Assembly (NCBI GenBank): GCA_046331405.1
Contig: JAXLQX010000001.1
Location: 576,471 to 640,470 of the forward strand
Source of the DNA: Thermoanaerobaculia bacterium
GTDB lineage: Bacteria; Acidobacteriota; Thermoanaerobaculia; Multivoradales; SZUA-115
DNA length: 64,000 bases
Direction: 5' to 3'
The notes under the pieces are model-generated. The model had not been told where the DNA came from, searched no databases, and worked only from the letters and a program-made list of their open reading frames with translations. Position 1 is the stretch's first letter; each line of letters starts with the position of its first letter. Of this stretch, positions 24,514 through 62,527 are shown piece after piece. The translations under genes and the position numbers were made by a program.

Positions 24514-25290
24514 CTAGGACCGACCCCGGTAAGCCTGAGCGGCCCCGTGGATGATAGCCAGGAATTTCTTCGGGTCAAGGCTCGCCCCTCCGACCAGGAA
24601 GCCGTCGACGTCCTGAGCGGCCGCGAGCGCCGCGGCGTTTTCGGGCGAAACCGAGCCACCGTAGAGCAGCGGCACCATGTGCGCCTCCTCCGTGCCGAGC
24701 ACTCCGCCCAGCAGCTGGCGCAGGAAAACGTGCGCCTCGCGAGCAGTCTCCGGGGTAGCGGTCTCGCCCGTGCCGATCGCCCACACTGGCTCGTAGGCGA
24801 GAGCGAGCTCGCCGAGATCCCCGCCGAGAGCCGAGAGCAGCTGGCGCTCGAGGACCTCGAGGGTCTTGCCGGTCTGGCGTTCTTCGCGGGTCTCGCCGAG
24901 GCAGAGGATCGGAGTCAAGCCGTTGACCATGGCGGCTTCGAGCTTGGCCGCCACCAAGGCGTCGCTCTCGCCGTGGTCGCGCCGGCGCTCGCTGTGACCC
25001 ACCAGCACCCAGGTGCAGCCGGCGTCGATCAGCTGCAGAGCCGAGACGTCGCCGGTGTGGGCGCCGCGAGCGGCGGGGTGGAGGTCCTGGCCGCCGAGGC
25101 CGATGCCGCTATCGTCCAGAGCGGCGGCGACGTCCGGCAGCAGGGGGAACGAAGGAAACAACACCGCCGTGGCGAGCTCCGGGTCGAAGCCGGCGCGGAA
25201 CTCCCGGCAGTAGGCCTCGGCCTCGCGCCGGAGCAGGTGCATTTTCCAGTTGGCCGCCACCAGGGGCAGGCGCTCGGCGATCAGGCTCAC
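24514..25290 (-). CDS. tpiA: Triosephosphate isomerase
   Basis: VAANWKMH, LVGHSERR, AYEPVWAIGTG and LYGGSV motifs. Confidence 0.9.
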   Translation of the reverse strand: MSLIAERLPLVAANWKMHLLRREAEAYCREFRAGFDPELATAVLFPSFPLLPDVAAALDDSGIGLGGQDLHPAARGAHTGDVSALQLIDAGCTWVLVGHSERRRDHGESDALVAAKLEAAMVNGLTPILCLGETREERQTGKTLEVLERQLLSALGGDLGELALAYEPVWAIGTGETATPETAREAHVFLRQLLGGVLGTEEAHMVPLLYGGSVSPENAAALAAAQDVDGFLVGGASLDPKKFLAIIHGAAQAYRGRS

Positions 25291-26483
25291 GGCGCCTCCA
25301 GCGCAGCCACGCCTGGCAGCACCCGCCCGGCGAGGAACTCGAGCGAGGCACCGCCGCCGGTCGAGACGTGCGAAACCTGCTCGGCCACTCCCGCCCGGTG
25401 GGCCGCCGCCACGGTCTCGCCGCCGCCCAGGACGGTGAAGCCCTGGCAGCCGGCGAGCGCCTGCGCCACGGCGCTGGTGCCGGCGTCGAAGGGCGGCTTC
25501 TCGAAGACGCCCAAGGGGCCGTTCCAGAACAGGGTGCGGGACGTGGCGATCGCCGCGGCGAAGGCGCGGCGGGTTTCAGGCCCCACATCCACGGCCAGGC
25601 AGCCGGCGGGCACGGCGTCCGCAGCGACCGTCTCGATGCGCTGGGGAGTCTCCAGGTCGTCCGTCACCACCAGGTCGGTAGGCAGCAGCACCTCGACGCC
25701 CCGCTCCGCCGCCTGCTCGAGGATGCTGCGGGCGAGCTCCAGGCGCTCGGTCTCCACCAGCGAGCGCTGCAGGTCCTTGCCCTGGGCGGCGAGGAAGGTG
25801 TTGGCCATGCCGCCGCCCACCATCAGGCGGTCGAGGCGGGGCAGGAGGTTGCTCAGGGTGTCGATCTTGCCCTCGATCTTGGCACCGCCCAGAAGCGCGG
25901 CGAAGGGCCGCTCCGGGCTGCCAAGCAGGCGAGAGAGCGCCGTGACCTCCTTCACCAGGAGGCGGCCGGCCGCCCGTCGGGGCAGCAGTGCGGCGGCGCC
26001 CACGGTGGAGGCATGAGCCCGGTGCGCGGCGCCGAAGGCGTCGTCCACATAGGCCTCGCCGAGGCGCGCGAGCTCTCCGGCGAAGGCCGCATCGTTGGCT
26101 TCTTCGCCGGGGTGGAAACGCAGGTTCTCGAGCAGGCAGAGCCCCCCGGGCTTGAGCGCCGCCACCGCACTTGCGGCCGGCTCGCCTACGCAGTCGGCCG
26201 CGAAAGCCACCGGCTTGCCGATGAGCTCGGCCAGGCGGTCCGCGGCCGGTTTCAGGCTGTACTTGGGATTCGGCTGGCCCTTGGGGCGGCCCTGGTGGGC
26301 CACGAGCACCACTCGGGCGCCGGCAGCGGCGAGCTCGGAGAGGGTGGGCAGAACCTCGGTCAGGCGGGTGTCGTCCATCACCTTGCCGTCGGCGATGGGC
26401 ACGTTGAAGTCCACCCGGGTGAGGACCCTCACGCCGTGGAGCTGGGCGAGGTCGAGGTCCTCGAGGGTCAGAAGGCGGCTCAT
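25287..26483 (-). CDS. pgk: Phosphoglycerate kinase
   Basis: Start re-placed at MSRLLTLEDLDL (rc ATG 26481-26483). VRVDFNVP-type N-terminus (TRVDFNVPIADGKV) and the GGGA...L ATP loop. ATGA overlap with the gap stop. Confidence 0.9.
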   Translation of the reverse strand: MSRLLTLEDLDLAQLHGVRVLTRVDFNVPIADGKVMDDTRLTEVLPTLSELAAAGARVVLVAHQGRPKGQPNPKYSLKPAADRLAELIGKPVAFAADCVGEPAASAVAALKPGGLCLLENLRFHPGEEANDAAFAGELARLGEAYVDDAFGAAHRAHASTVGAAALLPRRAAGRLLVKEVTALSRLLGSPERPFAALLGGAKIEGKIDTLSNLLPRLDRLMVGGGMANTFLAAQGKDLQRSLVETERLELARSILEQAAERGVEVLLPTDLVVTDDLETPQRIETVAADAVPAGCLAVDVGPETRRAFAAAIATSRTLFWNGPLGVFEKPPFDAGTSAVAQALAGCQGFTVLGGGETVAAAHRAGVAEQVSHVSTGGGASLEFLAGRVLPGVAALEAP

Positions 26484-27496
26484 GCGTCGTCTCTCCTGCG
26501 GCCGAGATAGGCCAGAAGGTCGGCCAGTCGGTTGGCGTAGCCCCACTCGTTGTCGTACCACGCCACCACCCGGAACAGCCGGCGATCCACTACCGTGAGG
26601 AGAGGCAAGTCTACCGTGGCCGAGTGCGGATCGCCGATGAAGTCGGAAGAAACCAGCTCTTCGTCGGTGGTGGCGAGGATCCCGGCGAGCTCCCCTCGGG
26701 CCGCCTCGCGAAAGGCCGCGGCAAGCTCCTCAAGCGGGGCTTCGCGGCGCAGTCGAACCGTGAGATCGATCAACGAGCCGTCCGGCACGGGCACGCGATA
26801 GGCGATGCCGCCGATGCGGCCGGCGAGCTCCGGCATCACCTCGCCGATCGCTTCCACGGCGTCGCTCGTGGTGGGCACGATGTTCATCGCCGCGGCCCGG
26901 GCCCGGCGTGGGTCGGGGTGGGAGAAGTCCATCAGCCGCTGGCTGTTGGTGTAGCAGTGCACCGTCGACATCAGGCCGTGCTCGATGCCGAAGCGCCGCT
27001 CCAGCACGGCAGCGACCGGTGCCAGGCAGTTGGTGGTGCAGGAGGCGTTCGAGATGACCGCGTGGCGGGCCGGGTCGTAGCGATGGTGGTTGATGCCCAC
27101 ACAGAAGGTGGCGTCCACCCCGGGAGCCGCTGCCGAGACCAAGACCTTCTCCACCGGCCCGCCCAGATGAGCCGCGGCCTCGGCCCGGCTCCGGAACTGT
27201 CCCGTGGACTCCACCACCAGCCACGGCTCGCTCTCGCGCCAGGGGATCTCGGCCGGCCGGGAGGCTCGGGAGAGCGGCACCCGCCGGCCGTCGAGCACCA
27301 GCGCGTCCGCTTCAGCCGAGACGCTGCCCGGGAAGCGGCCATGCAACGTGTCGTGGGCGAGCAGGCGGGCGAGCACCGGGGCGTCGGCCTGGTCGTTCAC
27401 CGCCACCAGCTCGAGTTCGGGCCGCTCCCGGGCGATCCGCACCAGGGCGCGGCCGATGCGCCCGAGGCCATTGATGGCGAAACGCACAGGGTTCAT
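26480..27496 (-). CDS. gap: Glyceraldehyde-3-phosphate dehydrogenase
   Basis: Start re-placed at MNPVRFAINGLGRIGR (rc ATG 27494-27496). Catalytic ASCTTNCLAP motif. Confidence 0.9.
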   Translation of the reverse strand: MNPVRFAINGLGRIGRALVRIARERPELELVAVNDQADAPVLARLLAHDTLHGRFPGSVSAEADALVLDGRRVPLSRASRPAEIPWRESEPWLVVESTGQFRSRAEAAAHLGGPVEKVLVSAAAPGVDATFCVGINHHRYDPARHAVISNASCTTNCLAPVAAVLERRFGIEHGLMSTVHCYTNSQRLMDFSHPDPRRARAAAMNIVPTTSDAVEAIGEVMPELAGRIGGIAYRVPVPDGSLIDLTVRLRREAPLEELAAAFREAARGELAGILATTDEELVSSDFIGDPHSATVDLPLLTVVDRRLFRVVAWYDNEWGYANRLADLLAYLGRRRDDA

Positions 27497-27616
27497 GAAG
27501 GAGGCGGGCCTCCAACCAGCAGGGCCGGGTTGGGTTTGGGGGCCCGGGAGGTTCGCGAGATCCTCCCCGGGGCCGTCGACAAAGTTCAAAGTGTAGCAGC
27601 AACGGTGGCTGCGGGC

Positions 27617-29557
27617 TCAGTGGCTGACCACCGGCAGCCGCTCGCTCTGTCGCTCGGGTCGGGCTGTCGCCCCGACGACGAGTGGAGGTTCCTTGCTGAG
27701 CCACTCCAGGGGCTCGATCACCACGCTGACGAAGCGGTCGTCCTCGCGGAACACGAAGCCCAGGCCGTCGAGCTCCTCGAGCGCCGACTGCACGCGGGTG
27801 GCCTCCTCGCCGAGGCGCTCGGCGATCGAGTCCACCCCCGAGGCCCGCAAGCAGAGATCCTGCAGAATCCGCTGCTGCACGGGGTCGAGCCGGACGTCGC
27901 GCGGGGCTGCTTCGCGGCGATCGAGGACCACCGCGTGGCCGTCCCGGACTTCGAGCCACAACGCCGCGCGAGCGGTGCCATCACGCCCCGAGAAACGAGA
28001 GGTCCAGCGCTGCACCTCGGCGACCAGCTTCTGCTGCCAGCTCGCCAGCTGCACCAGGTAGCGAGCGCTGTAGTTCTGATCCTGGAAGTAATAGGCCATT
28101 CCGGCCAGGACCTCGGGCGGGAACGGATAGATCGAGCCGTAGAACTCGTAGGGCTCGAGCTCGAGGCTGTAGTCCGCGGCGCGAACGAAATACGGGCTGT
28201 AGCGATCGAAGCGCACCGGAAAAGCGCCACCCGGCGGCGGCAGGTGCACCAGCCGAGGAATGTCGGCCAGGTACTTCTCATAAACCGCTTCACTCTCGCC
28301 GGGAAATCCGATCAGCAGGTTCCAGGCGGGCCGGATGCCGAAGCGCAGGGCATTCTTCAGGAAGACCACGTTCTGGAAGGAGGTGGTGCCCTTGCGCATC
28401 AGCTTGAGTGTGGACGTGTTCAGCGCCTCGATTCCCGGCTGGATCTCTCGCACGCCACCGGCCGAAAGGATTTCCATTTCCTTCGGTTTGAGGTCGGCCT
28501 TGACTTCATAGAAGATGGTGGCATCCGGCGGCGGCGAGAGCTTCGGGAAGACTTCTCGCAGGTACTCTCGAGGCAGGATGTTGTCCACGGACTCGAAGCG
28601 GTGGCAGCGGTCGCCGTAGCGCTCGAACAAGCTCTCGAGGAGGTTCAGAGCATCCCCCGAGGGCAGCGAGCGATAGGCCATGGTGCCGCCGTTCAGGCCG
28701 CAGAAAGTGCAATGGGAGCGCTCCCCCCACCAGCAGCCGCGAGAAGTTTCGAAGGTGAGGCTGGGTTCGAGCTTGCCGCCGGGAAAGTTGCGGGCGAGAT
28801 CGTCGAGGAAACTGTCGTAGTCGAGCGGAACCGCCACCTGGATGGGCAGCTCCTCTCCTAGCGCCGACTCGGCATCGAAGGAGCTGGCGTTTTCGGCCGT
28901 GAGCAGGCCCCGAATCGAATGGGTTGCGGCGCGATCGCCTTGCATCAGGCACTCGATCAACTTGGGCAAGGAGACCAGGGCGGGTCCTGAAGCGATGTAG
29001 TCCAGAGCCGGTACGCTCTTGGCGAGGAAGCGGCCCATCGGCGCCTCGCAATTGGCCCCGCCCATGATCGTGATCACCTGGGGATTCCGTGCCTTGACCA
29101 TGCGCGCGAGCGCGATGCTGGCGACGTTCTGGGCGAACATGGAGGTCAATCCGATCAGGTTTTCCTGATCGAGCTGATAGGACTGGATGGTCTGCTCCAT
29201 GAAGCGTTTCAAGCCGGTCCGCTTGGCGAGGACGAAACCCTTGAGCGCCTCTCCTGCCGGGTCGAGGCGAGGGAAGTAGCGGGGGAAGTAGTCGCGAGCG
29301 TTGTCCTCGAGGTCCGGGAAGGCGAGCTGACGGAAGATCCAATCACCGAGCCCCGAGTTGCTGGCCTGCAGCGCTCCCGCGATGACGTTGTAGGTGGAGA
29401 GGCCGAAGTACTTGCCGAAGTCCTGGTTCAAGTAGAGGATTCGGACGCGGACTTCCTCGCCCCAGCGCTGCTTCACGATCTCTCGGAGCTGGGTCAGCGC
29501 GATCGACGGCAGCGCCAGGTTGGCGAAGGGCATGTTGATCAGAGTGATCTTGTACAT
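27617..29557 (-). CDS. B12-binding-like / radical SAM-like protein (~646 aa) with atypical Cys spacing
   Basis: Start at MYKITLINMPFANLALP (rc ATG 29555-29557, RBS GGAGGGGAAAGGAG). The cluster region reads SRGCWWGERSHCTFCGLNGG, i.e. Cx7Cx2C rather than Cx3Cx2C. Long C-terminal extension. Confidence 0.55.
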   Translation of the reverse strand: MYKITLINMPFANLALPSIALTQLREIVKQRWGEEVRVRILYLNQDFGKYFGLSTYNVIAGALQASNSGLGDWIFRQLAFPDLEDNARDYFPRYFPRLDPAGEALKGFVLAKRTGLKRFMEQTIQSYQLDQENLIGLTSMFAQNVASIALARMVKARNPQVITIMGGANCEAPMGRFLAKSVPALDYIASGPALVSLPKLIECLMQGDRAATHSIRGLLTAENASSFDAESALGEELPIQVAVPLDYDSFLDDLARNFPGGKLEPSLTFETSRGCWWGERSHCTFCGLNGGTMAYRSLPSGDALNLLESLFERYGDRCHRFESVDNILPREYLREVFPKLSPPPDATIFYEVKADLKPKEMEILSAGGVREIQPGIEALNTSTLKLMRKGTTSFQNVVFLKNALRFGIRPAWNLLIGFPGESEAVYEKYLADIPRLVHLPPPGGAFPVRFDRYSPYFVRAADYSLELEPYEFYGSIYPFPPEVLAGMAYYFQDQNYSARYLVQLASWQQKLVAEVQRWTSRFSGRDGTARAALWLEVRDGHAVVLDRREAAPRDVRLDPVQQRILQDLCLRASGVDSIAERLGEEATRVQSALEELDGLGFVFREDDRFVSVVIEPLEWLSKEPPLVVGATARPERQSERLPVVSH

Positions 29558-29900
29558 GTCGGCTCCTTTCCCCTCCTGTGCTCGGAAGGCCGGTCCCGTT
29601 TCGAGCCTCCCTGAGATTCTCTCGACTTCGCCGTCGGAGAGCACCCGATCGGCTCTCCAGGTGGGAGAAGTCCTCCACGGCGGGAACCTCGGCCGGCCGC
29701 TGTGCCGGCGCAGAACTCTCTCACTCAGCGAGCCACTGTGACTCCTAAATGCAGCCGAGGAGATTTGCGGGACAAGGAACGGACCGGGCGATTCGAGCGA
29801 AGGCCGCCGTGAAATCTCGCATTAATCAGGAAGGTCTTTAGTTTGGCGAGCGCGCCAGGGTTCGAGTTGCCCCTTCGTTTCGTGAGCTATACTTTGGACA

Positions 29901-32393
29901 GTGCGAAAGTCGACATCTTCCTCGGTGAGCCCGGCCGCTGATGCTGCCCTCCCGGAGCGTGAGCTCGCCCTCGGGAGGAGCCTCGAGAGCGCGTACCAGG
30001 ACCTTCGCCTGGCTCTCCGCAACCTGCTGAAGAATCGCGCGTTCTCGCTGGTAGCACTGTCGGCGCTGGCGATCGGAATCGGCTCGAACAGCGCGATTTT
30101 CAGCTTGCTCAACGGCGTCCTGCTTCGACCTTATCCTTACGCCCAGCCCGAGCAGCTGGTGATGATCCTCGGTACCCGCCCGAGCTCCGGAGTGGCCCAG
30201 GCTCCGATCTCCTATCCGGACTATCTCGACTATCGCCAGCAAGCGCGTGGCTTTGCGGAGCTGGCGATCTTCGAGGAGCGCGACTTCAACCTGGCGACCG
30301 AAGACGGTGCGATTCAGCTGCGCGGGGCGGCGGCCTCGGCCAACCTGCAGCGCCTGACCGGCGTCAGGATGCTCCTGGGGCGGGATTTCCTGGCCGAGGA
30401 CGACCTGCCCGGCCGGCAAGGAGTGGTGCTCCTCGGCGAGGGGCTCTGGCGGGGCCAGTTCGGTGCCGATCCGGGCATTCTCGGGCGTACGATCACACTC
30501 GACCAGAAGCCTTTCAGCGTGGTGGGAGTGCTGCCCGCCGGCCAGGAGTTCCCGGACGAGGCCCGGCTGGTGGTGCCCCTGGCCCTCGATCCGGCCGGGC
30601 TCCCGCGCGATCGGCGCGCCTACCAGATGGTCGGCCGGCTCAAGCCGGGGACCACGCTGGAAGAAGCGCAGACGGACCTCAACGCCATCTCCCGCCGGAT
30701 CGAGCAAGAACACCGGGACACCAACGAAGGTTGGTCGACCCGCCTGCTCTCGCTGCGGGAGAGCCGCACCGGGCGGATCAAGGTGACGCTCTGGATCCTC
30801 ACCGGCGTGGTGGGCTTCGTACTGCTGATCGCCTGCGCCAACGTGGCCAACCTGCTGCTGTCCAGAGCCAGCCGGCGGCGCCGGGAGGTGGCGATCCGCT
30901 CCTCGCTGGGCGCGACTCGCAGCCGAGTGGTGCGACAGCTGCTCACGGAGAGCCTGCTGCTCGCCCTGATCGCGAGCGGAATCGGTCTCTTGCTGGCCTA
31001 TCTGGGCCTCCGCCTGTTGGTGGGCTCCCTGCCGTTCGCGCTACCGCCCTACCTGAGCTTCGGGCTCGATCTCCGGGTGCTGGCCTTCACCCTGGGAGCC
31101 TCGGTGCTGACCGCGCTGCTCTTCGGCCTCGCTCCGGCCCTGCAAACCTCGAGGGTGAGGCTCACCGACGTGCTCAACGAGTCCTCCTTGAGGGGAGGAT
31201 TCAGCCGTCGCCAGGTGCGGTTGACCAGCCTCCTGGTGATCGTCGAGATCGCGCTCACCATTCTCTTGATGATCGGTGCCGGGTTGATGATCCGGAGCTT
31301 CATCGGCCTCCAGATGCGGAACTTCGGCTTCCAGACGGCCGGTGTGATGACGGCGCGGGTCACCCTGCCGGAGGCGAGGTACGGCACGGTCGAGTCGCGC
31401 ACCGCCCTGTTCCGCGAGGTGCTCGAGCTGCTCTCGAGCCAGCCTGGCACGGCGGCGGTCGCCGCTGTCTCGGAGCTCCCCTTGCAGTCGGTGAGCCGCA
31501 CGACCTTCACCCTCCGCGACCAGGGGCAGGTGGAACAATCCCGCAACCCCTATCTGGACTACCAGATCTGCACTCCAGGCCTGTTCGCCGCACTGGGCGT
31601 GCCACTGCTCTCGGGGCGGGTCTTCGAGGGCGAGGAAGTGTGGAAGGACGAGGGCAAGGTGGTGCTGATCAACCAGGCCATGGCTCAGCAGTACTGGCCT
31701 GGCCGGGACCCGATCGGCGAGAGGATCGGCCTGGGCGGCTTCGGCAACGAAGACTGGCGCACCGTGGTAGGCGTGGTGGGTAACCTCAGCCGCGACCTGG
31801 TGAGCTCCGCACCTCAGCCCGAGATCTTCCTACCGTACGGCAAGGAGCCCCGGCGGCGCATGTCGTTGCTCCTGCGCAGCTCGGCCCAGAGCCAGAGCGG
31901 CGCCCTCGCGCTGCGGCGGGGGCTGGCAGCGTCGGACGCCAACTTGCCCCTGAGCGAGCTCGCGAGCCTCGGGCAGGTGGTGGGCAACCGCATCTGGTAC
32001 CAGCAGGTCGCCACCCTGGTGATCAGCTTCTTCGCCTTCGCGGCCCTCTTCCTGGCAGCTCTGGGCACGCACAGCATGCTCTCCTACTCGGTGGCCCAGC
32101 GGGTTCATGAGATCGGCGTCCGGCTGGCCCTCGGGGCCGACAACCGGCAGGTGATCCGGGGCATCCTCGGCTGGGCCATGGCCCTGGTGGGAATCGGCCT
32201 GGGCACCGGGTTGCTGGCGGCGATCGCGGTGACCCGCGTGATGCGCAGCCAGCTGATCGAGGTGAGCACGGCCGATCCCTGGACCTTCCTCGCCGTCAGC
32301 GCGCTGGTGGCGGTCGTGGCGGTGCTGGCCGCCTACCTGCCGGCGCGCAAGGCCACCCGGGTGGAGCCCGTGGTGGCGCTGCGAGCCCCCTGA
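29901..32393 (+). CDS. ABC-type efflux permease with duplicated FtsX domains (MacB/ADOP-like)
   Basis: N-terminus QDLRLALRNLLKNRAFSLVALSALAIGIGSNSAIFSLLNGVLLRPYPY. Large periplasmic domain. A second FtsX 4-TM block near the C-terminus. 830 aa. Confidence 0.75.
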   Translation: MRKSTSSSVSPAADAALPERELALGRSLESAYQDLRLALRNLLKNRAFSLVALSALAIGIGSNSAIFSLLNGVLLRPYPYAQPEQLVMILGTRPSSGVAQAPISYPDYLDYRQQARGFAELAIFEERDFNLATEDGAIQLRGAAASANLQRLTGVRMLLGRDFLAEDDLPGRQGVVLLGEGLWRGQFGADPGILGRTITLDQKPFSVVGVLPAGQEFPDEARLVVPLALDPAGLPRDRRAYQMVGRLKPGTTLEEAQTDLNAISRRIEQEHRDTNEGWSTRLLSLRESRTGRIKVTLWILTGVVGFVLLIACANVANLLLSRASRRRREVAIRSSLGATRSRVVRQLLTESLLLALIASGIGLLLAYLGLRLLVGSLPFALPPYLSFGLDLRVLAFTLGASVLTALLFGLAPALQTSRVRLTDVLNESSLRGGFSRRQVRLTSLLVIVEIALTILLMIGAGLMIRSFIGLQMRNFGFQTAGVMTARVTLPEARYGTVESRTALFREVLELLSSQPGTAAVAAVSELPLQSVSRTTFTLRDQGQVEQSRNPYLDYQICTPGLFAALGVPLLSGRVFEGEEVWKDEGKVVLINQAMAQQYWPGRDPIGERIGLGGFGNEDWRTVVGVVGNLSRDLVSSAPQPEIFLPYGKEPRRRMSLLLRSSAQSQSGALALRRGLAASDANLPLSELASLGQVVGNRIWYQQVATLVISFFAFAALFLAALGTHSMLSYSVAQRVHEIGVRLALGADNRQVIRGILGWAMALVGIGLGTGLLAAIAVTRVMRSQLIEVSTADPWTFLAVSALVAVVAVLAAYLPARKATRVEPVVALRAP

Positions 32394-32434: not shown

Positions 32435-33448
32435 GTGAGAGTCCTCGGTGCGAAGGACGTGGCGGCCTTGCTCAGGGGCCAGGAAGAGGCGGTCCTCGCG
32501 GCCGTGGAGCTTGCCTACCGGCGCCACGAAGAGGGCGCAACGGTGTTGCCGCATTCCGTTTTCGTGCGCCCTCCCGGCCAGAGCCTGAACCGCATCATCG
32601 CCCTCCCGGCCTGGGTCGGCGGAGAGCTCGGGATGGCCGGGATCAAGTGGATCTCGTCCTTCCCCGGCAATGTCGAGCGGGGCTTCAATCGTGCCTCGGC
32701 GGTGATCGTGCTCACCAGCACCGAGACAGGCCTGCCTCTCGCCCTGCTCGAGGGCTCGCTCGTCAGTGCCCATCGAACGGCGGCGAGCGCCGCGGCAGCC
32801 GCTCGGCTGCTCCATGCCCGGCGGCAGGTCGACCGCCTGGCGCTGGTCGGGGGTGGGGCGATCCAGCTCGAGATCCTGCGCTACTTGCGCCACGGCTTCC
32901 GCCTCGACGGCGAAGTGGTGCTCTTCGACAACGGCCCGGAAGGCGGGGCCCGCTTCGCGGCAGTGGTAGAACGGCTCTTCGGCTTGAGGGTCGGCCTGGC
33001 GAGCTCGGCCGCTCAGGCGCTCGCGGGGGCCGACGTGCTCAGCCTCGCCACCACCGCGGCCAAACCCCATCTCGACTCCCTCGAACGCCTCCGGCCGGGT
33101 GCCACGGTGCTCCATGTTTCGCTGCGCGACCTCGCTCCCGAGGTGATCCTCGGCAGCGACAACGTGGTCGATGATCGCGACCACGTGCTGCGGGCGGAGA
33201 CCTCGCTCCACCTCGCGGAGCAAGCGGTGGGGAATCGAGCCTTCATCCGCGCCAGCCTGGGCGAGTTGCTCCTGGGCCGGCAGCCGGTGCGACCCGAGCC
33301 CGAACGCCTCACCGTCTTCAGTCCCTTCGGCCTCGGAGTGCTCGATCTGGCCGTGGCGGACTGGGTCTACCGCTGCGCCGAGCAGGCAGGCCTCGGCCGC
33401 ACGGTGGAGGACTTCCAGCCCCGCCCCTGGTGGGAGGTCGAAGCCTGA
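32435..33448 (+). CDS. Ornithine cyclodeaminase/mu-crystallin family NAD-dependent enzyme (SbnB-like)
   Basis: OCD-family fold: Rossmann LALVGGGAIQ. Located next to a SbnA-like PLP enzyme gene. Confidence 0.6.
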   Translation: MRVLGAKDVAALLRGQEEAVLAAVELAYRRHEEGATVLPHSVFVRPPGQSLNRIIALPAWVGGELGMAGIKWISSFPGNVERGFNRASAVIVLTSTETGLPLALLEGSLVSAHRTAASAAAAARLLHARRQVDRLALVGGGAIQLEILRYLRHGFRLDGEVVLFDNGPEGGARFAAVVERLFGLRVGLASSAAQALAGADVLSLATTAAKPHLDSLERLRPGATVLHVSLRDLAPEVILGSDNVVDDRDHVLRAETSLHLAEQAVGNRAFIRASLGELLLGRQPVRPEPERLTVFSPFGLGVLDLAVADWVYRCAEQAGLGRTVEDFQPRPWWEVEA

Positions 33449-33467
33449 GGCCTTAGGGCGCGGTCGA

Positions 33468-34478
33468 TCAGGGCTGGGAGCCGAGCACGCTCGCCAGGAT
33501 GGCCTTCTGGATGTGCAGGCGATTTTCTGCCTGGTCGTAGCGGATCGACTGTGGGCCATCGACCACGCCAGCCGTGGCTTCGTCGCCGCGGATGAGCGGC
33601 ATGCAGTCCATGAACACCGCCCCCGGGGCGGCCCGCTCGAAATGCCGTTCGGAGACCCGCCAGGCCTCCCGCAGCGGCGCGCGCAAAGCGGCATCCTCCT
33701 CGGCCGTGCAGGAGAGCGCCTTCCAGCTCTTGGCGTAGATGGCGTCGGCACCTGCGGAGGCGGTGTCGAGGTCGTGGCAGAGCTCCAAGCTGCCCCCGGA
33801 GCGCTCGCTCTGCTCGCGGGCGAAGCGGAGGTAGTCCTCTTCAGGCTCGAAGCCCGGCGGGAACACCATCCGCAGCCGCATGCCCAGGATCGCGGCGGCT
33901 GCCAGCATGGAGTGGGTCACGCCCGGGGACTTCTGGCGCTTGGCCCAGGCCCAGCTGAAGACCACGGTACGCTGCCGGTAATCCGCACCGAAGCGTTCGC
34001 GCAGGGTGAGGATGTCGGCCAGCACCTGGCAGGGGTGCTCGCGATCGTCGAGGGCATTGATCACCGGCTTCGCCGCGTAGCGGCCGATCTCCTCGAGGCT
34101 GCGATAGCCCTTGCCGTACTGCGTCAGGTCGTAGAGGCGCACCACGATGCCGTCGAGCAGCCGGCCCATCACGGCGGCGGTGTCCTGCAGGGTCTCGTGG
34201 TTGCTCATCTGGAGGTCCGCAGGCGTGAGGTGCTCCGCGTGGGCCCCCAGCTGGCGCGCCGCTACCTGGAAGGAGATTCTCGTGCGCGTGGACGGCACGG
34301 TGAACAGCATGCCGAGCGTCTTGCCCGCGAGAAGCGCTTGGTTCACGGCGCCGCTCTTCATCTGCAAGGCGAGATCGATCAAAGCCTCGAGGGTCTCGCG
34401 ACTCTGATCGCGCAGGGTGAGGAAGCTGCGGCCCTCGAGAACGCTCAAGGCTGGGTGTGGGGGCCGGGTGGGATCCAT
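33468..34478 (-). CDS. OTC/ATC-family carbamoyltransferase, atypical subfamily
   Basis: Carbamoyl-phosphate motifs FTVPSTRTRISF (STRTR) and HPCQVLAD (HPxQ). The region equivalent to the ornithine-site HCLP motif reads FMDCMPLIRGDE. Confidence 0.7.
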   Translation of the reverse strand: MDPTRPPHPALSVLEGRSFLTLRDQSRETLEALIDLALQMKSGAVNQALLAGKTLGMLFTVPSTRTRISFQVAARQLGAHAEHLTPADLQMSNHETLQDTAAVMGRLLDGIVVRLYDLTQYGKGYRSLEEIGRYAAKPVINALDDREHPCQVLADILTLRERFGADYRQRTVVFSWAWAKRQKSPGVTHSMLAAAAILGMRLRMVFPPGFEPEEDYLRFAREQSERSGGSLELCHDLDTASAGADAIYAKSWKALSCTAEEDAALRAPLREAWRVSERHFERAAPGAVFMDCMPLIRGDEATAGVVDGPQSIRYDQAENRLHIQKAILASVLGSQP

Positions 34479-34516
34479 GCGTGGGGCTCCTTGGAAAGGC
34501 GTGGTGGGCCCGGCGG

Positions 34517-35575
34517 CTAGAAGCCGTTCTCGAAGGCGGCGTCTCCGAAATGCTCGCGCGTCCAGGAGTCCGAGAAGACGGTGTCCAGGTAGCGCTCGCC
34601 GCGATCGGGGAGGATGCCCACCACCTCGCTGCCGGGGGCGATCTCGGGCAACGCGCGCTCGATGGCGCTCACCACCGCGCCCGAGGAGGCACCGGCGAAG
34701 ATCGCCTCGTCGGCAAGCAGCCGGCGGCAGCCGCGGACGGCATCGAGATCGCTCATCAGGCTCACTTCATCCACCAGCTCGATCGGGCAGAGGGGCGGCC
34801 GGAGCGAAGCGCCCAGGCCGGGGAGCAATCGCTGGCAGCGCTGGTGATCGAAGATGAGGCTACCCACGGCATCCACCGCGACCACGCGAGTCGACAGCCC
34901 CAGTTCCCGCACCTTCTGCGCGCAACCGGCCAGCGTTCCGCAGGTGCTGGTCGGAATGAAAAGGTAATCGGGAGCGGGAACCACGCGCAGGATTTCCTCC
35001 ATGGTGGTCTCGTAGTGCTCGCGGGCGTTGTGCCGATTTCCATATTGATTGGGCCAGAAAGCGGCGGGATCAGCTGCCAGGATTTCCTGCACGCGGTGCA
35101 GTCGGGCCTGCAAGTACTCGCCGGTTTCCGGATCCGGCTCGCGGATCGCGTCCACCTCGGCCCCGTAGGCGCGGAGAATCGCGATGTTGGTGCGGCTGGC
35201 CTTGGGATCCACCACGCAGATCAGTCGCAAGCCGTGATAGCGACAGGCCTGGGCCAGGCCGATACCCATGTTGCCGGAGCTCGACTCCACGACCACCGAG
35301 CCGGGCTTGAGTTCTCCCCTCGCAAGTGCTTCTTCCACGATGCGCAGCGCTGGCCGGTCCTTGCTGCTGCCGCCCGGGTTGAGGCCCTCGATCTTCGCCA
35401 ACACCCGCGCCCTGGCGCCGGCGAAGCGCCTGCGGAGGTGAATCAGCGGTGTCTCGCCGACGGCTTCGAGAATGCTCCCGAGCGGCCTCAGGGCTTGCTT
35501 CGAAGGCGCCTTACGACGACTGGCCGGGCCACTTGGACACGGCGGCTGTCGAGGCGCATTCGAAAGTGTGCTCAT
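34517..35575 (-). CDS. Cysteine-synthase-fold PLP enzyme, SbnA-like
   Basis: PLP-lysine motif LNPGGSSKDRPALRIVEEA (SbnA-type GGSxKDRPA), glycine loop SSGNMGIGLA, and a CysK-like C-terminal half. Confidence 0.65.
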   Translation of the reverse strand: MSTLSNAPRQPPCPSGPASRRKAPSKQALRPLGSILEAVGETPLIHLRRRFAGARARVLAKIEGLNPGGSSKDRPALRIVEEALARGELKPGSVVVESSSGNMGIGLAQACRYHGLRLICVVDPKASRTNIAILRAYGAEVDAIREPDPETGEYLQARLHRVQEILAADPAAFWPNQYGNRHNAREHYETTMEEILRVVPAPDYLFIPTSTCGTLAGCAQKVRELGLSTRVVAVDAVGSLIFDHQRCQRLLPGLGASLRPPLCPIELVDEVSLMSDLDAVRGCRRLLADEAIFAGASSGAVVSAIERALPEIAPGSEVVGILPDRGERYLDTVFSDSWTREHFGDAAFENGF

Positions 35576-35960
35576 CAGTCATGCCAGGATGTTTTCTCCC
35601 CTAGAGTGCAGCGAGTCAATCAGTCGGGACAACGCAAGAAGCCGCTTCGGGCCGCGGCCTCGCTAGCGAATCGAGGAAATTTCCGTAGGTGTTCAGGTGT
35701 GGGCACAATTCTCTTCTAAACATTACTGTTACGGCTGGGCAAAGAGTCGAGTTCCAGCGCTGTGATCGTCTGCCGGCCGCGTGTCACGCCACCGGCTGAG
35801 GAGTGCATTCTTAGATGTAGAACGCGAGATCAGCTCGTCAAGACAAACCCGACTCTGGCTGGGTAGCCAGTTTGGAAGGGAAAAGGATGAACCGTCCTGG
35901 AACGCCCCCCCGCCAGAGTCGATTCGGCGCCTCGACCGATTCTGCCAGGGAGCTGCTTCC

Positions 35961-36680
35961 ATGGTATCGACCCTCCTCGCGCTGGCCCTGACCCTGCCGG
36001 CAACGGCTGCAGCCAACGACCTCACGGTGGACCAGATCCTCAGCCGGGCTGTCGAGGCCCGGGGTGGGGCAGCGCGCCTCAAGGAGCTGCGCTCGATCCG
36101 CACCCAGGGTGATTTTCTGGTTCAAGACGTCAAGCAGCCGTTCGTCCTCTACCGCCAGCGTCCCGACCATCTGCGCTCCGAGATCCAGACCCGCAAGGGC
36201 GCCGTCGTGCGGGTTTTCGCCGACGGCAAGGGCTGGGAGGTGAACCCCACCCAGGGCTCCACGGCGCCGCGGGTGCTGAGCGACGCCGAAGCGGCGGGTC
36301 TGCGCCGCCAAGCGGACTTCGATGGCCCTCTTCTCGATGCCAAAGCCAAGGGTCATCAGTGGCGGTTGGTGGGCCGCGAGAAGCTGGGCGACAAGGACGC
36401 CTATCACCTCGAGGTGAAGCTCGCGAGCGGCGACTCCGAGTCCTGGTGGGTGGATGCCGGGGACTTTCACGTGGTTAAGTCGGTTCAGAAGCAGACCGTG
36501 GCCGGCCAGCTCACCGACCTAGTCACTGAATACAGCGATTTTCGCGATGTCTCAGGAGTGAAGCTGCCGTTCCGTATCGACACCGAGCAAGTGGCACTCG
36601 GCCGCAAGACCACGCTCCTGGTGCAGTCGATCGCGGTCGATGCCGAGATGTCCGGGGATCTCTTCAGGATGCCCGGCTAA
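35961..36680 (+). CDS. Secreted LolA-like / outer-membrane-lipoprotein-sorting-like protein
   Basis: Start re-placed at ATG 35961, giving signal peptide MVSTLLALALTLPATAAA. Beta-rich, about 240 aa. Family assignment is tentative. Confidence 0.4.
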   Translation: MVSTLLALALTLPATAAANDLTVDQILSRAVEARGGAARLKELRSIRTQGDFLVQDVKQPFVLYRQRPDHLRSEIQTRKGAVVRVFADGKGWEVNPTQGSTAPRVLSDAEAAGLRRQADFDGPLLDAKAKGHQWRLVGREKLGDKDAYHLEVKLASGDSESWWVDAGDFHVVKSVQKQTVAGQLTDLVTEYSDFRDVSGVKLPFRIDTEQVALGRKTTLLVQSIAVDAEMSGDLFRMPG

Positions 36681-36711
36681 GCGTGGCCGTGCCCCATGTC
36701 GGAGCCATGCC

Positions 36712-39700
36712 ATGACCCGGGACCGACGCTCGCCGCAGAGCGATGATGTTGCCATCGTCGGGCTGAGTTGCCGGTTTCCCCACGCCGAAGGTCTCGAGCC
36801 CTTCTGGCGCCTTCTCGCAAGCGGCGGGGATGCGATCGAAGAGGTTCCGGCCGAGCGCTGGGACCTCGCTGCCGTCTACCGTCCGGGCAAGGCCGTTCCC
36901 GGCAAAGTCAACACTCGCTGGGGCGGCTTCCTGCAGGGTGTCGACCTCTTCGACGCCGGGTTCTTCGCGATCTCCCCCCGCGAAGCCGCGCGCATGGATC
37001 CGCAGCATCGCATGCTGCTGGAGGTCGCCTGGGAGGCCCTCGAGGACGCCGGCCTCCTGCCCGGGCAGCTGCGCGGAGCCCGCGGCGGTGTTTTTCTCGG
37101 CCAGTGCTACGAGGACTACCTCGACCTCGAGATTCGCGATCCGCGGCGGATCGATGTCTACGTCAACACCGGCGGGGCGCGCAGCGTCGCCGCCGGCCGC
37201 GTCTCCTACAGCTTGGACTGGCGAGGTCCCAGCGTGTCGATGGACACCGCCTGCTCCTCCTCGCTGGTGGCCCTCCACCAGGCCATCGTCGCCCTGCGCG
37301 AGGGCGAATGCGACATCGCTCTCGCCGGTGGCGTGAACCTGGTTCTCCAGCCGGACTTCAGCATCGGCTTCTCTCAGGCGGGGATGCTCGCCCCCGACGG
37401 CCGATGCAAGGCCTTCGACGCGCGCGCCGACGGCTTCGTGCGCAGCGATGGCGTGGCCCTGGTGGCGCTCAAGCGGCTGGCCGACGCCCAGGCCGACGGC
37501 GATCCTGTGCGGGCCGTGATCCTCGGCAGTGCCGTGACCAACGATGGCCAGTCGAGCGGGCTCTTGATGACTCCTGGCCGGGAAGGCCAGGAAGCCGTGC
37601 TGCGCGAGGCCTACCGCCGAGCCGGAGTCTCGCCGGGGGCGGTGCACTACATCGAGGCCCACGGCACGGGGACCAGCGTGGGAGACCCGATCGAGGCCGC
37701 GGCCCTCGGGGCGGTGATGGGCGAGGGCCGGCCGGCGGGAAAGCGCTGCCGCCTGGGCTCGGTGAAATCCAATATCGGCCACACCGAGGGCGCCGCGGGG
37801 ATGGCCGGCTTGATCAAAGTGGTGCTCGCCATGGAGCAGGGCCTGCTGCCGGCGAGCCTCCATTGCCACGAGCCCAATCCGCGGATCCCCTGGCAGGAGC
37901 TGCCCGTCGAGATGCAAACCGAATCCGGCCCCTGGCCCCTCGCCGGGGGAGAGCGGGCGCTCGCGGGAGTGAGCTCTTTCGGCATCTCGGGCACCAACGC
38001 CCACGTGGTGGTCGAGCAGGCCGCCGAGCCCATCCGGGGGCGGCCGGCGGAGGTCGACGGACCCGTGGTGCTGCCGCTCTCGGCGGCTTCGGCGGCGGCT
38101 CTCGCTCAACGGGCGCAGCAGCTGCTCGAAACCCTGGAGGCCAGGCCGCGGGACTTCCCGCTGGCAGACCTCGGCTACACCCTCGCCGTACGCCGCAGCC
38201 ACTTCGAGCACCGCCTGGCCGTGGTGGCGAACTCCACGGCGGAGGCCGCCGAGGGCCTGGCCGCCTTCCGGGCGGGAGAGAGCCGAGCCAACCTCGCCAC
38301 CGGGGCCGCCACCACCACCGAGCGTCCACGCGTGGCCTTCCTCTTTCCGGGCCAGGGCAGCCAGTGGCTGGCCATGGGCCGCCGCTTGGCCCAGCAGGAA
38401 CCCGCGTTCCGCGCCGCCCTCGAGAGCTGCGACGAGGCCATCGCCCGCCACGCCGGCTGGTCGGTTCTCGCCGAGCTCGAGGCCGGCGAGGCGACCTCGA
38501 GGCTGGAGGAAGTGGACGTCGTCCAGCCGCTGATCTTCGCCCTCCAGGTGAGCCTCGCCGCCCTGTGGCGCAGCTGGGGCGTGGAGCCGGACGCCGTGGT
38601 GGGCCAGAGCCTGGGCGAGGTGGCCGCCGCCCACGTGGCCGGCGCCCTCGACCTCGACGACGCGGCTCGGGTGATCTGCCGGCGCAGCAAGCTGGTCAAG
38701 ACCACCAGCGGCCGGGGCGGCATGGCGGCCGTCGAGCTCTCGCTCGAGGAAGCCCGCGAACGCATCGCCCACCGCGCGGACCGCGTCTCTGTGGCGGTGA
38801 GCAACGGCCCCCGCTCCACCGTGCTCTCGGGCGAAACCGAGGCCCTCGGGGAGATCCTGGCCGAGCTCGAGCGAGACGGCGTGTTCGGCCGCTTGATCAA
38901 GGTGGACTACGCCTCGCACAGCCCGCAGATGGACCCCCTGCGCGAGGCCCTGCTCGCCGAACTCGAGCCTGTCAGGCCGCGCCCCGGGAGCGTACCGATC
39001 TACTCGACGGTCAGCGCCGAAGTGGGCGACGGCGCCGACTTCGACTGCCACTACTGGGTGAGGAATCTGCGCGAGCCGGTGCTCTTCGCCCCCTGCCTCG
39101 AAAAGCTGCTGGACCACGGCCACACCGTCCTGCTCGAGGTGAGCGCCCATCCCATCGTGCTTTCGGCGCTGAAGACCGCCCTCCACCACTGGCAGCGCCG
39201 GGCCCTGTGCCTGCCCTCGCTGGTACGGGACGGCGATCGCGGCGCCCTGCTCGCCTCGCTCGGCGCGCTCTACTGCGAGGGCTATCCGGTCGCCTGGGCG
39301 AAGCTCTTTGCACCTGGCGGCCGTTGCCTTCGACTGCCGTCCTACCCCTGGCAGCGCGAGAGCTACTGGATCGACCCGGAAGGGCCCGGTAAGCCCCTCG
39401 AGCGCGGGAGCGCAGCGCCTTCGGGGGGCCACCCGCTGCTCGGTTGGCGGCTGGAGTCGGCACTGCATGCCGGCACCCGCTTCTGGCAGACCGAAATCGC
39501 TCTCGAGCGGCAGAGCTTCCTGGCCGACCACCGGGTGCAAGGCGCGGTAGTGCTGCCGGCCGCCGCCTACCTCGAAGCCGCCCTCGCGGCAGCAGAGGAT
39601 TGCCTGGGAGCGGAGGCCGCGGTGGAGCTCGCCGGCGTCGAGTTCGAGCAGGCGCTGTTCCTGGCCCCGGGCCAGCCTCGGCGCAGCCAGCTGGCCCTGA

Positions 39701-42700
39701 GCCCGGCCGGCGAAGGCGCCTTCCAGTTCCGGTTCCTGACCGCCCGAGAAGGCGGTTGGCTGTGCCACTCCCACGGCCGGGTGCGAGGGGTCCTCGAGGG
39801 CAACTCCGGCGCCGACTTCCGGGCGTTCGAGGCTGCACGCGGGCGCTGCCGGCAGGAGGCGGATTCGGAGGCCCCTTATCGGCAGCTCGAGGCCCTCGGG
39901 CTCGAGTACGGGCCGTCCTTTCGCCGGCTGGCGGCCCTCCACCGGGGTGACGGCGAAGCGGTGGCTGCCCTGGAGCCTGCCGAGGGTGGCCTCGGAGGCT
40001 CCTACCGGCTCGACCCCACGCTGCTCGACGCCGGCTTCCAGCTGCTCGCGGCGGCGCTGGGAGAGGCGGAGACGGGTGGCAAGACGCTGCTGCCGGTACG
40101 CCTCGAGAAGCTGCGCTTCTTTCCGTCGGCGGGCCCACCCGCCTGGTGCTGGGCTCGGCTGGAGCCCATGCCGGCCGGCGAAGAGCTGCCGCGAGGCTCG
40201 GTCTCTCTGTTCGACTCGCAGGGCGCGCTGGTGGCCGAAGCGAAGGGGCTCGCCCTGGCGCGCCTCGCTTCGGCCGAGGAGCCGCGCAGCCTCTTCCATC
40301 AGATCCTCTGGCAGGAGGCGCCGCTCGAGGCTGCGGCAGCCGCCCCGCCGGCGTCGAGCTGGCTGCTGGTCGGTGGCCCCGCCGAGCTCGCCGGCAGCCT
40401 GCGGAGCGCTCTCGAGCACGCCGGGCAGCTCGTCGAGGCCACCGCCGGGCCGAGCTTGCCGCCGGGTGGGCCGTGGCAACACGTGATCTCCTTAGCGGCG
40501 CTCGAGGTCCCCGCGCTTGGCCAGAGCCCTGATCAACAGGCCCTCGAGTTCGCCTGGCGGGCTGCCCAGCTGGTGCAGGGGCTGGTATCGGCGCCCGGGC
40601 CCCGGCCGGGGCTGTGGCTGATCACCCGCGGCGCGGTGGCTCCGGCAGGAGAAGCGCCCTCGGCAGCCCCTCAGGCGGTGCTCTGGGGCCTCGGCCGGAC
40701 CCTGCGCAACGAGCATCCCGAGCTCGCCTGTCGCCTGGTGGATCTCGATCCTTCTTGGACGGGCGGCGAGCGGCTCGCTGCCGAGCTGCTCGCCGGCAGC
40801 GAGGAGGCGCAGGTCTGCCTTCGCCGCGACGGTCGCTTCGCGGCTCGGCTCTCGGCCGGCCTCGAGGGCGGAGCACGGGCCGCCGCCGGACCGCCGGCGC
40901 GCACCCTGAGCGCCCGGGAGCCGTTCCGCCTGGAAGCCCTCACGCCCGGCGTGCTCGACGGCCTCGCCTTGACCCGCTGCGCGCGGCGCCCTCCCGGGCC
41001 GGGGCAGGTCGAGGTGCTCGTCCGTGCGGCGGGCCTGAACTTCATGGACCTGATGCGGGCCATGGGCATCTATCCCGGCCAACCGGACGGAGCTCTCGCC
41101 CTGGGGGTGGAATGCGCCGGCACGGTGGTGGCGGTGGGCCCCGGGGCGGAACGTTTCCGCCCGGGGGACGAGGTGGTGGGCATCACCCCCTCGCACAACA
41201 CCTGTATCGCCTCCTACACCACCCTCGACGAGCGCTGCGTGGCACCGCGGCCGGCCGGGCTCGATCCGCTCGCGGCCGCCACCCTGCCGGTCGCCTACCT
41301 CACCGCCTATTACTCGCTCTGCCACCTCGCCCGGCTCGCCCCCGGCGAGCGGGTGCTGATCCACTCGGCCACCGGCGGCGTGGGCCTCGCGGCCTGTCAT
41401 CTCGCTCGCCAATTGGGCGCCGAGGTGCTGGCCACGGCCGGCAGCGAAGCCCGCAGGGCCTACCTGCGCGAGCTCGGCATCGAGCACGTCTTCGACTCTC
41501 GTTCTCTCGGCTTTGCGGCCGCCGCGCGGGCGGCCACCGCGGGCAAGGGCGTGGACGTGGTGCTCAACTCACTCGCCGGCGAGGCCATTCCGGAGGGGCT
41601 CGCGTGCCTGGCCACCGCCGGGCGCTTCGTCGAGCTCGGCAAGCGGGACATCTACCAGAGCGCCCAGCTGAGCCTGCTGCCGTTCAAGCGCAATCTGGCC
41701 TTCTTCGCGGTGGATATCGATCTGCTCTGCCGCGAGCAGCCGGCCTTCGTGGGCCGGATGCTGCAGGAAGCCATGGCACTGGTGGCGAGCGGGGCGGTGC
41801 CGCCCCTGCCCAGCCACGTCTATTCGATCGCCGAAGCCCACGAGGCCTTCCGGCTGATGGCCCAGGCGCGCCACCTGGGCAAAGTGGTGCTCCATTTCGA
41901 CCGCCCCGAGGTTTCCGTGCAAGAGCCGGCCGGCCGGGCCGCCACCCTCTCCGCCGAGCGCAGCTACCTGGTGACCGGCGGTCTCGGCGGTCTCGGCCTC
42001 CAGGTGGCCGGCTGGCTGGCCGACCACGGTGCCCGCAAGCTCGCCCTGCTCGGCCGCAGCGCACCCGGCGAAGAGGCTCGTGCCCTGGTGGCCTCGCTCG
42101 CCGAGCGCGGCGTCGAGGTGCTCACCCTGGCGGCGGACGTGGCCGACGCCGGAGCGGTCGATCACGCCGTGAGCCGTATCGAGGCCGAGCTCGCTCCGCT
42201 GGCGGGAGTGGTTCACGCCGCCGGTCTGCTGGCGGATCGCACCCTGGTCTCGCTCAGCGAGGAGGATTTCGCCCGCGTCTTCGCGCCCAAGGTGCGCGGC
42301 GCCTGGCTGCTCGGGGAGCGCACCCGCGGCTGTCCGCTGGACTTCTTCGTGCTGTTCTCCTCGGCGGCGGCCGCCCTGGGCTCACCGGGCCAGGCCAACT
42401 ACAGCGCCGCGAACGCCTATCTCGATGCCCTGGCGGCAGCGAGGCAGGGAGAAGGCCTGCCCGGTCTCGCGATCGCCTGGGGTCCGTGGTCGGAAGTCGG
42501 CTTGGCGGCACGGCCGGATCGCGGTGGCCGGCTCGCCCGCCGTGGCTTCGGCAGCCTCTCGCCGGCCGAAGGCCTCGAGGCGTTCGGAGAGCTTCTGGCG
42601 AGCCGAGAGAGCCAGGTGGTGGTGACGCCCTTCGAGCTCGGCCCCTGGCAGCAGTTCTATCCGCAGGCCGCGAGCGACCCCTTCTTCAGCACTCTGGGCC

Positions 42701-43157
42701 GAGCCGAGGAACCGGCGACGGGAGCGAGCGAAGGGCTCAGCGCCGCGAGCCTCGCGCGCTTGCCGGCCGCCGAGCGAGAGGCCCGACTGCGGGAGTACCT
42801 GCGCGAGCTGGTGGCCCGGGTGCTCGGCCTGCCTGCGGCACGCCTCGAGGACGACCGGCCGGTGAACCGCCTGGGTATGGACTCGCTGATGGCCGTGGAG
42901 ACCCGCAATCGCGTGGAGATGGACCTCGGGGTGAGCGTTCCCGTGGTGACCCTGCTCCAGGGGGCCACGCTGCGGGAGCTCACGGAGCGGATCCAGGCGG
43001 AGCTGGGCGCGAGCCCTGCCGGCTCCGCCGCTCCGCCGCCGGCCGGCCCCGGCGAACCCGGCCACGAGGTGGTTGCCGAGATCGACCTCGAGGCGCTCTC
43101 CGAGGGCCAGGTCGACTCGCTCTTACGAGACCTCCTGGAGAGCCAGGGCAGCGCTCC

Positions 43158-43161
<4 letters not shown>
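36712..43161 (+). CDS. Type I polyketide synthase, single fully reducing module KS-AT-DH-ER-KR-ACP
   Basis: KS: DTACSSSLVALHQA, EAHGTGT, NIGHTEGAAG. AT: GQSLGEVAAAHVAG with the YASH specificity motif (methylmalonyl-type). DH: HPLLGWRLESALHAGTRFWQTE. ER: LIHSATGGVGLAA. KR: YLVTGGLGGLG. ACP: LGMDSLMAV. Start at MTRDRRSPQSDDVAIVGLSCRFP. ATGA overlap with the next gene. Confidence 0.9.
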
Positions 43162-48866
<5,705 letters not shown>

Positions 48867-53500: not shown

Positions 53501-53647
53501 GCGCCCACCATCGCTCTGCTCGCCCGTCGGGTGGAAGCGGAGCGCGGCACCGCCGCCCCGGCCGAGGTGGTCCTGGTGGCCGAGAGCCTGGACATCGAAG
53601 CCCAGCTCGCCGAGCTCGCCGGGGGCAAACCGGAGGAGGTCGTTTGA
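50513..53647 (+). CDS. NRPS subunit 2: degenerate C-like domain (no HHxxxDG) - A - PCP
   Basis: N-terminus YRLSPLQRRLW...HEALRTSYS is C-like, but the catalytic motif position reads SAPALGCDAES (no His). A domain LAYVIFTSGSTGRPKGV, NHYGPTETTV, YRTGDLA, KYHGFRIELAEIR. PCP FFELGGHSLLATRM. TTGA overlap with the next gene. Confidence 0.85.
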   Translation: MSGTPTTGYRLSPLQRRLWRVLEPGEQALTRLELEVRGRLEPQTLLAAARQVAARHEALRTSYSLPAGFRVPFQVVAPEPAVAMNEHASSVQTGLGLRFEELGPAHFRLELSAPALGCDAESLATVAGELLHLAAGGGAEDLAPEPLQYVDFSEWQHEQLEQGDPALAVARSFWQEVELAPLQALSLPFELAARSAGGGRASERLQRRLEGEDLAAARELEARLGSRPGALALAVWLIWLEQRCRLAAPTTSIRLEGRNLPELEGAVGLFARWLPLVHRAPESLRFAELVSRVSKALGEAGGHQGGFAWPETEGEEPATPRVGFARLGLPAFSLPGLEARATGLESAPEGQALVLEVLESDEAWQLGFRFDPSRLLQEDVAMAAGEWLELLGQGLRRPDTPLGRLSLLGSEARSSLLQSWRGAGRSAEPRASLPEQIFAAAREVPDRVAVVFESEFLSYGALARGAEALAARLDGQGPESVVGLCLERSTELMAGLLGIWRAGAAYCPIDPAQPRERLRRLMEDLRAPAVVTSAELAPRLEAAGGRPVVIGEVSPSPAPLRKLAPEPSSLAYVIFTSGSTGRPKGVAVEHRQLAHYVAAARAALDLPAGASYASVSTLAADLGNTAIFPALASGGTLHLLSLERAADAEAFTGYFRERPVEGLKIVPSHLEAVLEADATAPLPWRRLVLGGEACRPEWAAALAGRMAGGRVFNHYGPTETTVGALTDPVGPSPGDSRLRAWPLGRPLEGMRAYLLDRRGEPLPLWAPGELFLAGDGVARGYLGRPAQTAERFLPDPLSPSPGARLYRTGDLARRLPDGRIEFLGRSDHQVKYHGFRIELAEIRAALNQHRAVRNSAIRLLKDDAGRDVLVAYYVAREELDPAELRTFLGEHIQEETLPGYFVHLRRLPLTLNGKVNLEALPELAEVRQKLARHFVAPTTETEKALAAIWGELLGLSRVGVEESFFELGGHSLLATRMASRIRRGFGVVLPLRALFEAPTIALLARRVEAERGTAAPAEVVLVAESLDIEAQLAELAGGKPEEVV

Positions 53648-62427: not shown

Positions 62428-62527
62428 GCCCCGCGTGCCCGGAGTGGACCTGGTGACCTGGATCGCCGGGCCCCGGCGGATCCCCGTCGAGATGGGCCAG
62501 GCCGCCAGCGGGGAGCCCCGGCCGTGA
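62408..62527 (+). CDS. Possible 38-aa bridging ORF between NRPS3 and NRPS4 (hypothetical)
   Basis: ATG at 62408 overlaps the NRPS3 stop in the +1 frame. Encodes MSDPTPEPRVPGVDLVTWIAGPRRIPVEMGQAASGEPRP. Its TGA overlaps the GTG start of the next NRPS gene (CCGTGAGCC). Confidence 0.2.
   Translation: MSDPTPEPRVPGVDLVTWIAGPRRIPVEMGQAASGEPRP

Follow-up and report, generated by a model that had tools for sequence, protein, structure and literature searches.

What does a transcarbamylase do between two genes whose products resemble the SbnA and SbnB enzymes of L-2,3-diaminopropionate (Dap) synthesis, beside a PKS-NRPS assembly line? The question is raised by a 64,000-nt stretch of DNA from an uncultured Thermoanaerobaculia bacterium (contig JAXLQX010000001.1), referred to here as the window. 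We propose, with a probability of about 60%, that the three genes form a cassette supplying a carbamoylated diamino acid as a precursor, in which Dap would be converted to beta-ureidoalanine for use as a building block.

The locus and its homologues of SbnA and SbnB

The three open reading frames lie exactly where the original prediction had placed them (Table 1), GC3 frame analysis backs their frames and strands, and all motifs singled out at that stage (NPGGSSKDRPA, STRTR, HPCQ and DCMP) are present. The trio is not one operon, as the SbnB-like gene converges on the transcarbamylase-SbnA-like pair. A MacB/FtsX-type permease gene ends 41 bp upstream of the SbnB-like gene on the same strand; its product is likely the exporter of the cluster product, and homologous permeases flank the cassette in the loci L001/L002 and L208. 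The left edge of the cluster is probably at the radical SAM C-methyltransferase gene. On the other side, the 299-aa ORF, divergent from the SbnA-like gene and located just ahead of the PKS gene, has no Pfam or NCBIfam match, and a homologue was missing from every other cassette locus tested (L001-L085, L206-L210). The trio had been described as lying next to the NRPS, which is true of the region, where NRPS genes begin at 43158, but not of the megasynthase gene directly adjoining it, which encodes a PKS module. The cluster extends past the end of the window.

Table 1. Genes, domains and motifs of the window (nucleotide positions counted from the first letter of the window)
Feature	Position (nt)	Strand	Length or residues	Evidence or remarks
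gap and pgk (GAPDH, PGK)	25287-27589			beyond the radical SAM C-methyltransferase gene
Radical SAM C-methyltransferase, TIGR03975 type	27617-29644	-		518 bits, cut-off 282
MacB/FtsX-type ABC permease	29901-32393	+		Pfam MacB_PCD and FtsX, two of each
SbnB-family NAD-dependent dehydrogenase	32435-33448	+	337 aa
Rossmann motif GGGAIQ of the SbnB-like protein	32849-32866
OTC-superfamily transcarbamylase	33468-34478	-	336 aa
DCMP of the transcarbamylase	33597-33608		291-294
AKSWK of the transcarbamylase	33720-33734
KRQKSPG insertion of the transcarbamylase	33921-33941
HPCQ of the transcarbamylase	34026-34037		148-151
120s-loop insert LTQYGKG of the transcarbamylase	34107-34127
STRTR of the transcarbamylase	34278-34292		63-67
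SbnA-family PLP enzyme	34517-35575	-	352 aa
PLP lysine motif NPGGSSKDRPA of the SbnA-like protein	35348-35380		66-76
ORF	35781-36680	+	299 aa	GC3 supports coding
Fully reducing PKS module, KS-AT-DH-ER-KR-ACP	36640-43161	+		Pfam domains
NRPS, C-A-T-C-TauD	43158-48866	+		Pfam; A code DLYNMSLIWK (Cys-like)
Second C domain of this NRPS	46476-47789
TauD-family dioxygenase domain of this NRPS	47934-48815
B12-binding radical SAM methyltransferase, PhpK family	48873-50516	+		TIGR04479, 625.5 bits, cut-off 600; Pfam
NRPS, (partial C)-A-T	50513-53647	+		Pfam; A code DLTKVGHVGK (Asp-like)
NRPS, C-A-T-C-A-T-sulfotransferase-C	53644-62427	+		Pfam; A codes DILTLGLVWK, DASTVAAVGK
Sulfotransferase domain of this NRPS	60103-60750
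Further NRPS gene, start (C domain)	62428-64000	+		Pfam Condensation; runs off the window

The PLP enzyme belongs to the SbnA family, as had been predicted from its lysine motif. It scores 406.6 bits with the NCBIfam equivalog model TIGR03945 (cut-off 349.95) and 279 bits against Staphylococcus aureus SbnA (5d84), and at most 164 bits against any CysK/cysteine synthase, CBS or CmnB. Assignment to CysK/CysM was rejected on these low similarities and on the scores of the corresponding models (158-209 bits, cut-offs 344-413). According to the alignment with 5d84, the equivalents of K47, R132, Y152 and S185 are conserved in this protein, and the same holds for each of the ten SbnA homologues from cassettes in the comparison. 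The enzyme is predicted to catalyze the formation of ACEGA from O-phospho-L-serine and L-glutamate.

The assignment of the dehydrogenase to the SbnB type stands as well: it passes the cut-off of the NCBIfam equivalog TIGR03944 (386.1 bits versus 326.9), and among solved structures it comes closest to S. aureus SbnB (4m54, 125.6 bits; 74 bits for CmnK). A true ornithine cyclodeaminase was considered and rejected, since the corresponding models yield only 48-114 bits against cut-offs of 350-438. The predicted reaction is the conversion of ACEGA to Dap and 2-oxoglutarate.

Motifs and phylogenetic position of the transcarbamylase

The transcarbamylase retains the carbamoyl-phosphate site (STRTR, HPCQ and Cys-x-Pro), while the motifs of the ornithine site are replaced: KSWKALS is found for DxxxSMG, DCMP for HCLP, and KRQKSPGV at the Asn of DGNN. 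The DCMP motif, already pointed out in the original prediction, aligns unambiguously with HCLP of the Pyrococcus furiosus OTC, and realignment restores no canonical OTC site: neither the DxxxSMG loop nor the Asn of DGNN is retained, and HCLP has lost its His. These replacements are invariant across a family of many metagenomic homologues, which come from Acidobacteriota wherever the source names an organism. The family signature (MDCMP for HCLP, AKSWK for DxxxSMG, the KRQKSPG insertion and a longer 120s loop) is invariant in 60 homologues with 55-69% identity. Among the residues gained are an Asp in the HxLP loop (D291) and two basic residues in the inserted loop (R181 and K183).

Source databases label the protein "ornithine carbamoyltransferase", and the solved structures that match it best are those of OTC (221 bits) and AOTCase (181 bits), as might be expected of an unusual OTC or AOTCase of the arginine pathway that happens to lie beside Dap genes. 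However, it falls below every curated cut-off, whether for OTC (270 versus 306 bits with NF001986, 260.5 versus 280.85 with TIGR00658), AOTCase, PTCase, YgeW (80-84 versus 453-500 with TIGR03316/NF005538) or ATCase, and the residues that bind ornithine are those that have been replaced.

In the phylogenetic analysis the family groups with AOTCase in 100 of 100 bootstrap replicates and never (0/100) as a sister to the VioL-type enzymes, which form a clade of their own (100/100) on the OTC side of the tree. The likeness to AOTCase and the other knotted transcarbamylases (SOTCase, YTCase) extends to an elongated 120s loop, with seven residues inserted relative to OTC, although three residues shorter than in AOTCase; to K250 in YAKSW, the AOTCase-type Lys that opens the 240s loop, invariant in the family; and to an acidic residue before HPxQ, D144, which aligns with E144 and is at least 90% conserved. 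Where the knotted enzymes have the proline-rich loop that the C-terminus threads through, the protein has an insertion of AOTCase length with a single Pro (KRQKSPG). Nonetheless, the protein is not an AOTCase. It reaches 223 bits with NF003384 (cut-off 288), its 80s loop is short and OTC-like rather than extended, Trp77 and Glu92 are absent, Lys302 is replaced by Glu, SMRTR by STRTR and the His of HCLP by Asp, and the arginine-pathway context is missing. Judged by sequence, the family is an undescribed branch of the superfamily related to AOTCase, in which the site of the second substrate appears to have been rebuilt on an AOTCase-like scaffold. The changes would suit a short amino acid that offers a carboxylate and a free alpha-ammonium group, but the roles that we infer for individual residues leave room for another kind of acceptor, as K250 and the basic residues of the inserted loop would fit a larger acidic or N-acylated molecule equally well.

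Conserved neighborhoods and the predicted product

Twelve family loci have usable flanks (the window, L001, L003, L004, L007, L008, L064 and L206-L210). An SbnA homologue adjoins the transcarbamylase gene in all of them, as opposed to none of 74 control loci of ordinary OTCs (39 of them of at least 10 kb) with SbnA or SbnB nearby. It is because of this conserved synteny that we consider the transcarbamylase functionally tied to Dap synthesis; together with the altered ornithine site, it supports the original view that the substrate is probably not ornithine. Given further that arg genes were seen in none of the twelve loci, a housekeeping role in the arginine pathway seems highly improbable. 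The nearest two relatives that do not belong to the D291-bearing family have NCLP (L009) or HCLP (L010a), hence no Asp at this position, and SbnA was not found near either of them. The latter, the nearest outgroup (48% identity), is accompanied by another transcarbamylase and by a carbamate kinase, an arrangement that would be in keeping with catabolism, i.e. phosphorolysis of a ureido compound to provide carbamoyl phosphate for ATP synthesis, as in YgeW or catabolic OTC. For the family itself such a role is hardly credible, as carbamate kinase was seen in none of the twelve loci and the context of NRPS/PKS genes, exporter and SerA is biosynthetic.

Most family loci are found within NRPS/PKS clusters, but one (L209) belongs to an ATP-grasp ligase cluster in whose vicinity no carrier proteins are encoded. 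The coupling of the cassette to such different machineries (NRPS, PKS-NRPS and ATP-grasp amino-acid ligases) argues for a free amino acid as its product. In L001, L206, L209 and L210 the genes follow in the order SbnA-SbnB-transcarbamylase with gaps of up to about 55 bp (the annotated coordinates in L210 overlap by 4 nt), and in the first two of these the next gene encodes phosphoglycerate dehydrogenase (SerA), which feeds O-phosphoserine synthesis; the L206 protein scores 543 bits with TIGR01327 (cut-off 454) and that of L001 has the same Pfam domains.

We therefore envisage a pathway in which the SbnA-like enzyme would condense O-phospho-L-serine with L-glutamate, the SbnB-like enzyme would cleave the resulting ACEGA oxidatively to release Dap, and the transcarbamylase would transfer the carbamoyl moiety of carbamoyl phosphate to Dap, most likely to the beta-amino group of the free rather than the tethered amino acid. 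The product would be L-beta-ureidoalanine (albizziine), a glutamine analogue, which we infer to be incorporated by the neighboring PKS-NRPS line.

The acceptor could also be ACEGA or N-acyl-Dap, or the alpha-amino group of Dap might be attacked, yielding a ureido acid other than albizziine. SbnB is located nearby in eight of the twelve loci but was not found within 10 kb in the remaining four (L003, L004, L207 and L208), suggesting either that SbnB is encoded elsewhere or that some of the cassettes use an intermediate other than Dap. AOTCase, with which the family clusters, acts on an N-acylated substrate; the invariant R181 and K183 belong to the loop which in SOTCase holds the succinyl carboxylate in place (PMC4581275), and the knotted YgeW reacts with 2,3-diureidopropionate at its 2-ureido group (PMC12507026). 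On the other hand, SbnB, where present, usually lies between SbnA and the transcarbamylase, the SbnA proteins encoded without SbnB nearby show no visible change at K47, R132, Y152 or S185, the residues by which AOTCase and SOTCase recognize the acetyl or succinyl group (extended 80s loop, Trp77, Lys302) are not conserved, and an alpha-N-carbamoyl amino acid would be usable only as a chain starter. We thus find a different acceptor or nitrogen quite unlikely.

The A domains bear on the timing of carbamoylation. Codes read from the alignment to GrsA include no recognizable Dap, Dab or ureido-type code among the four A domains within the window, and those of cassette-adjacent A domains elsewhere are heterogeneous: Asn-like, Gln-like and, in the NRPS directly downstream of the cassette in L008, Dab-like (DIWEITADD). 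The last resembles codes for cationic Dab-type substrates and would fit loading of Dap with its amine still free, with carbamoylation following on the carrier- or peptide-bound residue; the timing of the VioL reaction in viomycin biosynthesis is unsettled too. Such late-stage carbamoylation is unlikely: every characterized member of the ATCase/OTCase superfamily acts on small free substrates (PMC4581275), the L209 cluster has the cassette without carrier proteins nearby, and the cassette is repeatedly arranged as a self-contained supply operon with SerA. Early carbamoylation of free Dap is therefore the course that we favor.

The TauD domain of the first NRPS shares 40% identity with the separate TauD genes that adjoin the transcarbamylase in L207 and L208. 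The start codon of the NRPS gene that ends at 62427 is uncertain, and the gene is not on record with any of three candidate starts. None of these clusters could be linked to a product, and our literature searches gave no description of them.

Significance and comparison with known systems

If the prediction is true, the family represents a second, independently evolved answer to the problem of carbamoylating a short diamino acid, within a superfamily where small changes in loops set the choice of substrate. The signature described above can be used to recognize such genes among those now labelled "ornithine carbamoyltransferase". The proposed function also leads us to expect that products of uncultured Acidobacteriota contain ureido-Dap units. 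As the prediction concerns three small soluble enzymes, it is directly testable. More tentatively, we suggest that an AOTCase-related, possibly knotted branch, named so far only from Acidobacteriota, may have been recruited for diamino-acid carbamoylation independently of VioL and PadQ, and that SbnA-(SbnB)-transcarbamylase may be a portable module serving NRPS, PKS-NRPS and ATP-grasp pathways; its SbnB-less or TauD-linked variants might make a further ureido amino acid, e.g. ureidoalanine in hydroxylated or dehydro form, or a derivative of carbamoylated ACEGA.

The two flanking genes belong to the families of S. aureus SbnA and SbnB; in staphyloferrin B biosynthesis, however, Dap is used directly by the NIS synthetases and no transcarbamylase is associated. 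The original prediction had invoked PadQ ("DBTCase") of the padanamide pathway, a member of the OTC superfamily that carbamoylates another short diamino acid, L-2,4-diaminobutyrate, for an NRPS pathway (PMC4581275). The likeness of function holds, but PadQ, compared here by its description in the review, is placed in the unknotted OTC branch and carries the motifs HDLP and TRWQSMG (PMC4581275), neither of which occurs in our transcarbamylase. As the latter is a relative of neither PadQ nor VioL, the analogy is functional only.

The closest precedent is the VioL/CmnL-type L-2,3-diaminopropionate transcarbamylase ("DPTCase") encoded in the viomycin, capreomycin and zwittermicin clusters, which has been proposed to carbamoylate Dap to the same product, beta-ureidoalanine (PMC4581275). 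Together with VioB/VioK (CmnB/CmnK) it likewise combines an SbnA-type, an SbnB-type and an OTC-superfamily enzyme to feed an NRPS, and SbnA and/or SbnB homologues lie within 8 kb in 33 of the 120 VioL-type loci fetched; it is in actinomycetes that VioL/CmnL-type genes have such neighbors. Nevertheless, the transcarbamylase is not a VioL/CmnL-type enzyme: identity to that type is 27-38% (at most 151 bits), the clades are separate, and where the VioL type has HDLP, TTRWQTTG (in general (T/S)RWQTTG), HPTQ, EGNN and no insertions, the new family has DCMP, AKSWKAL, HPCQ, the KRQKSPG insertion and the longer 120s loop. The best PDB matches of the VioL type are unknotted OTCs, and AOTCase matches none of its members at E <= 1e-20. 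In both groups the Asp of DxxxSMG is gone and a new one is present in the HxLP loop, although one residue earlier in the new family, where it replaces His, than in the VioL type, where it replaces Cys. The logic of such a cassette had been described for viomycin, capreomycin and zwittermicin (2009 references cited in PMC4581275) and, with DPTCase already in the literature, the concept is not new; what is new is the lineage of the transcarbamylase.

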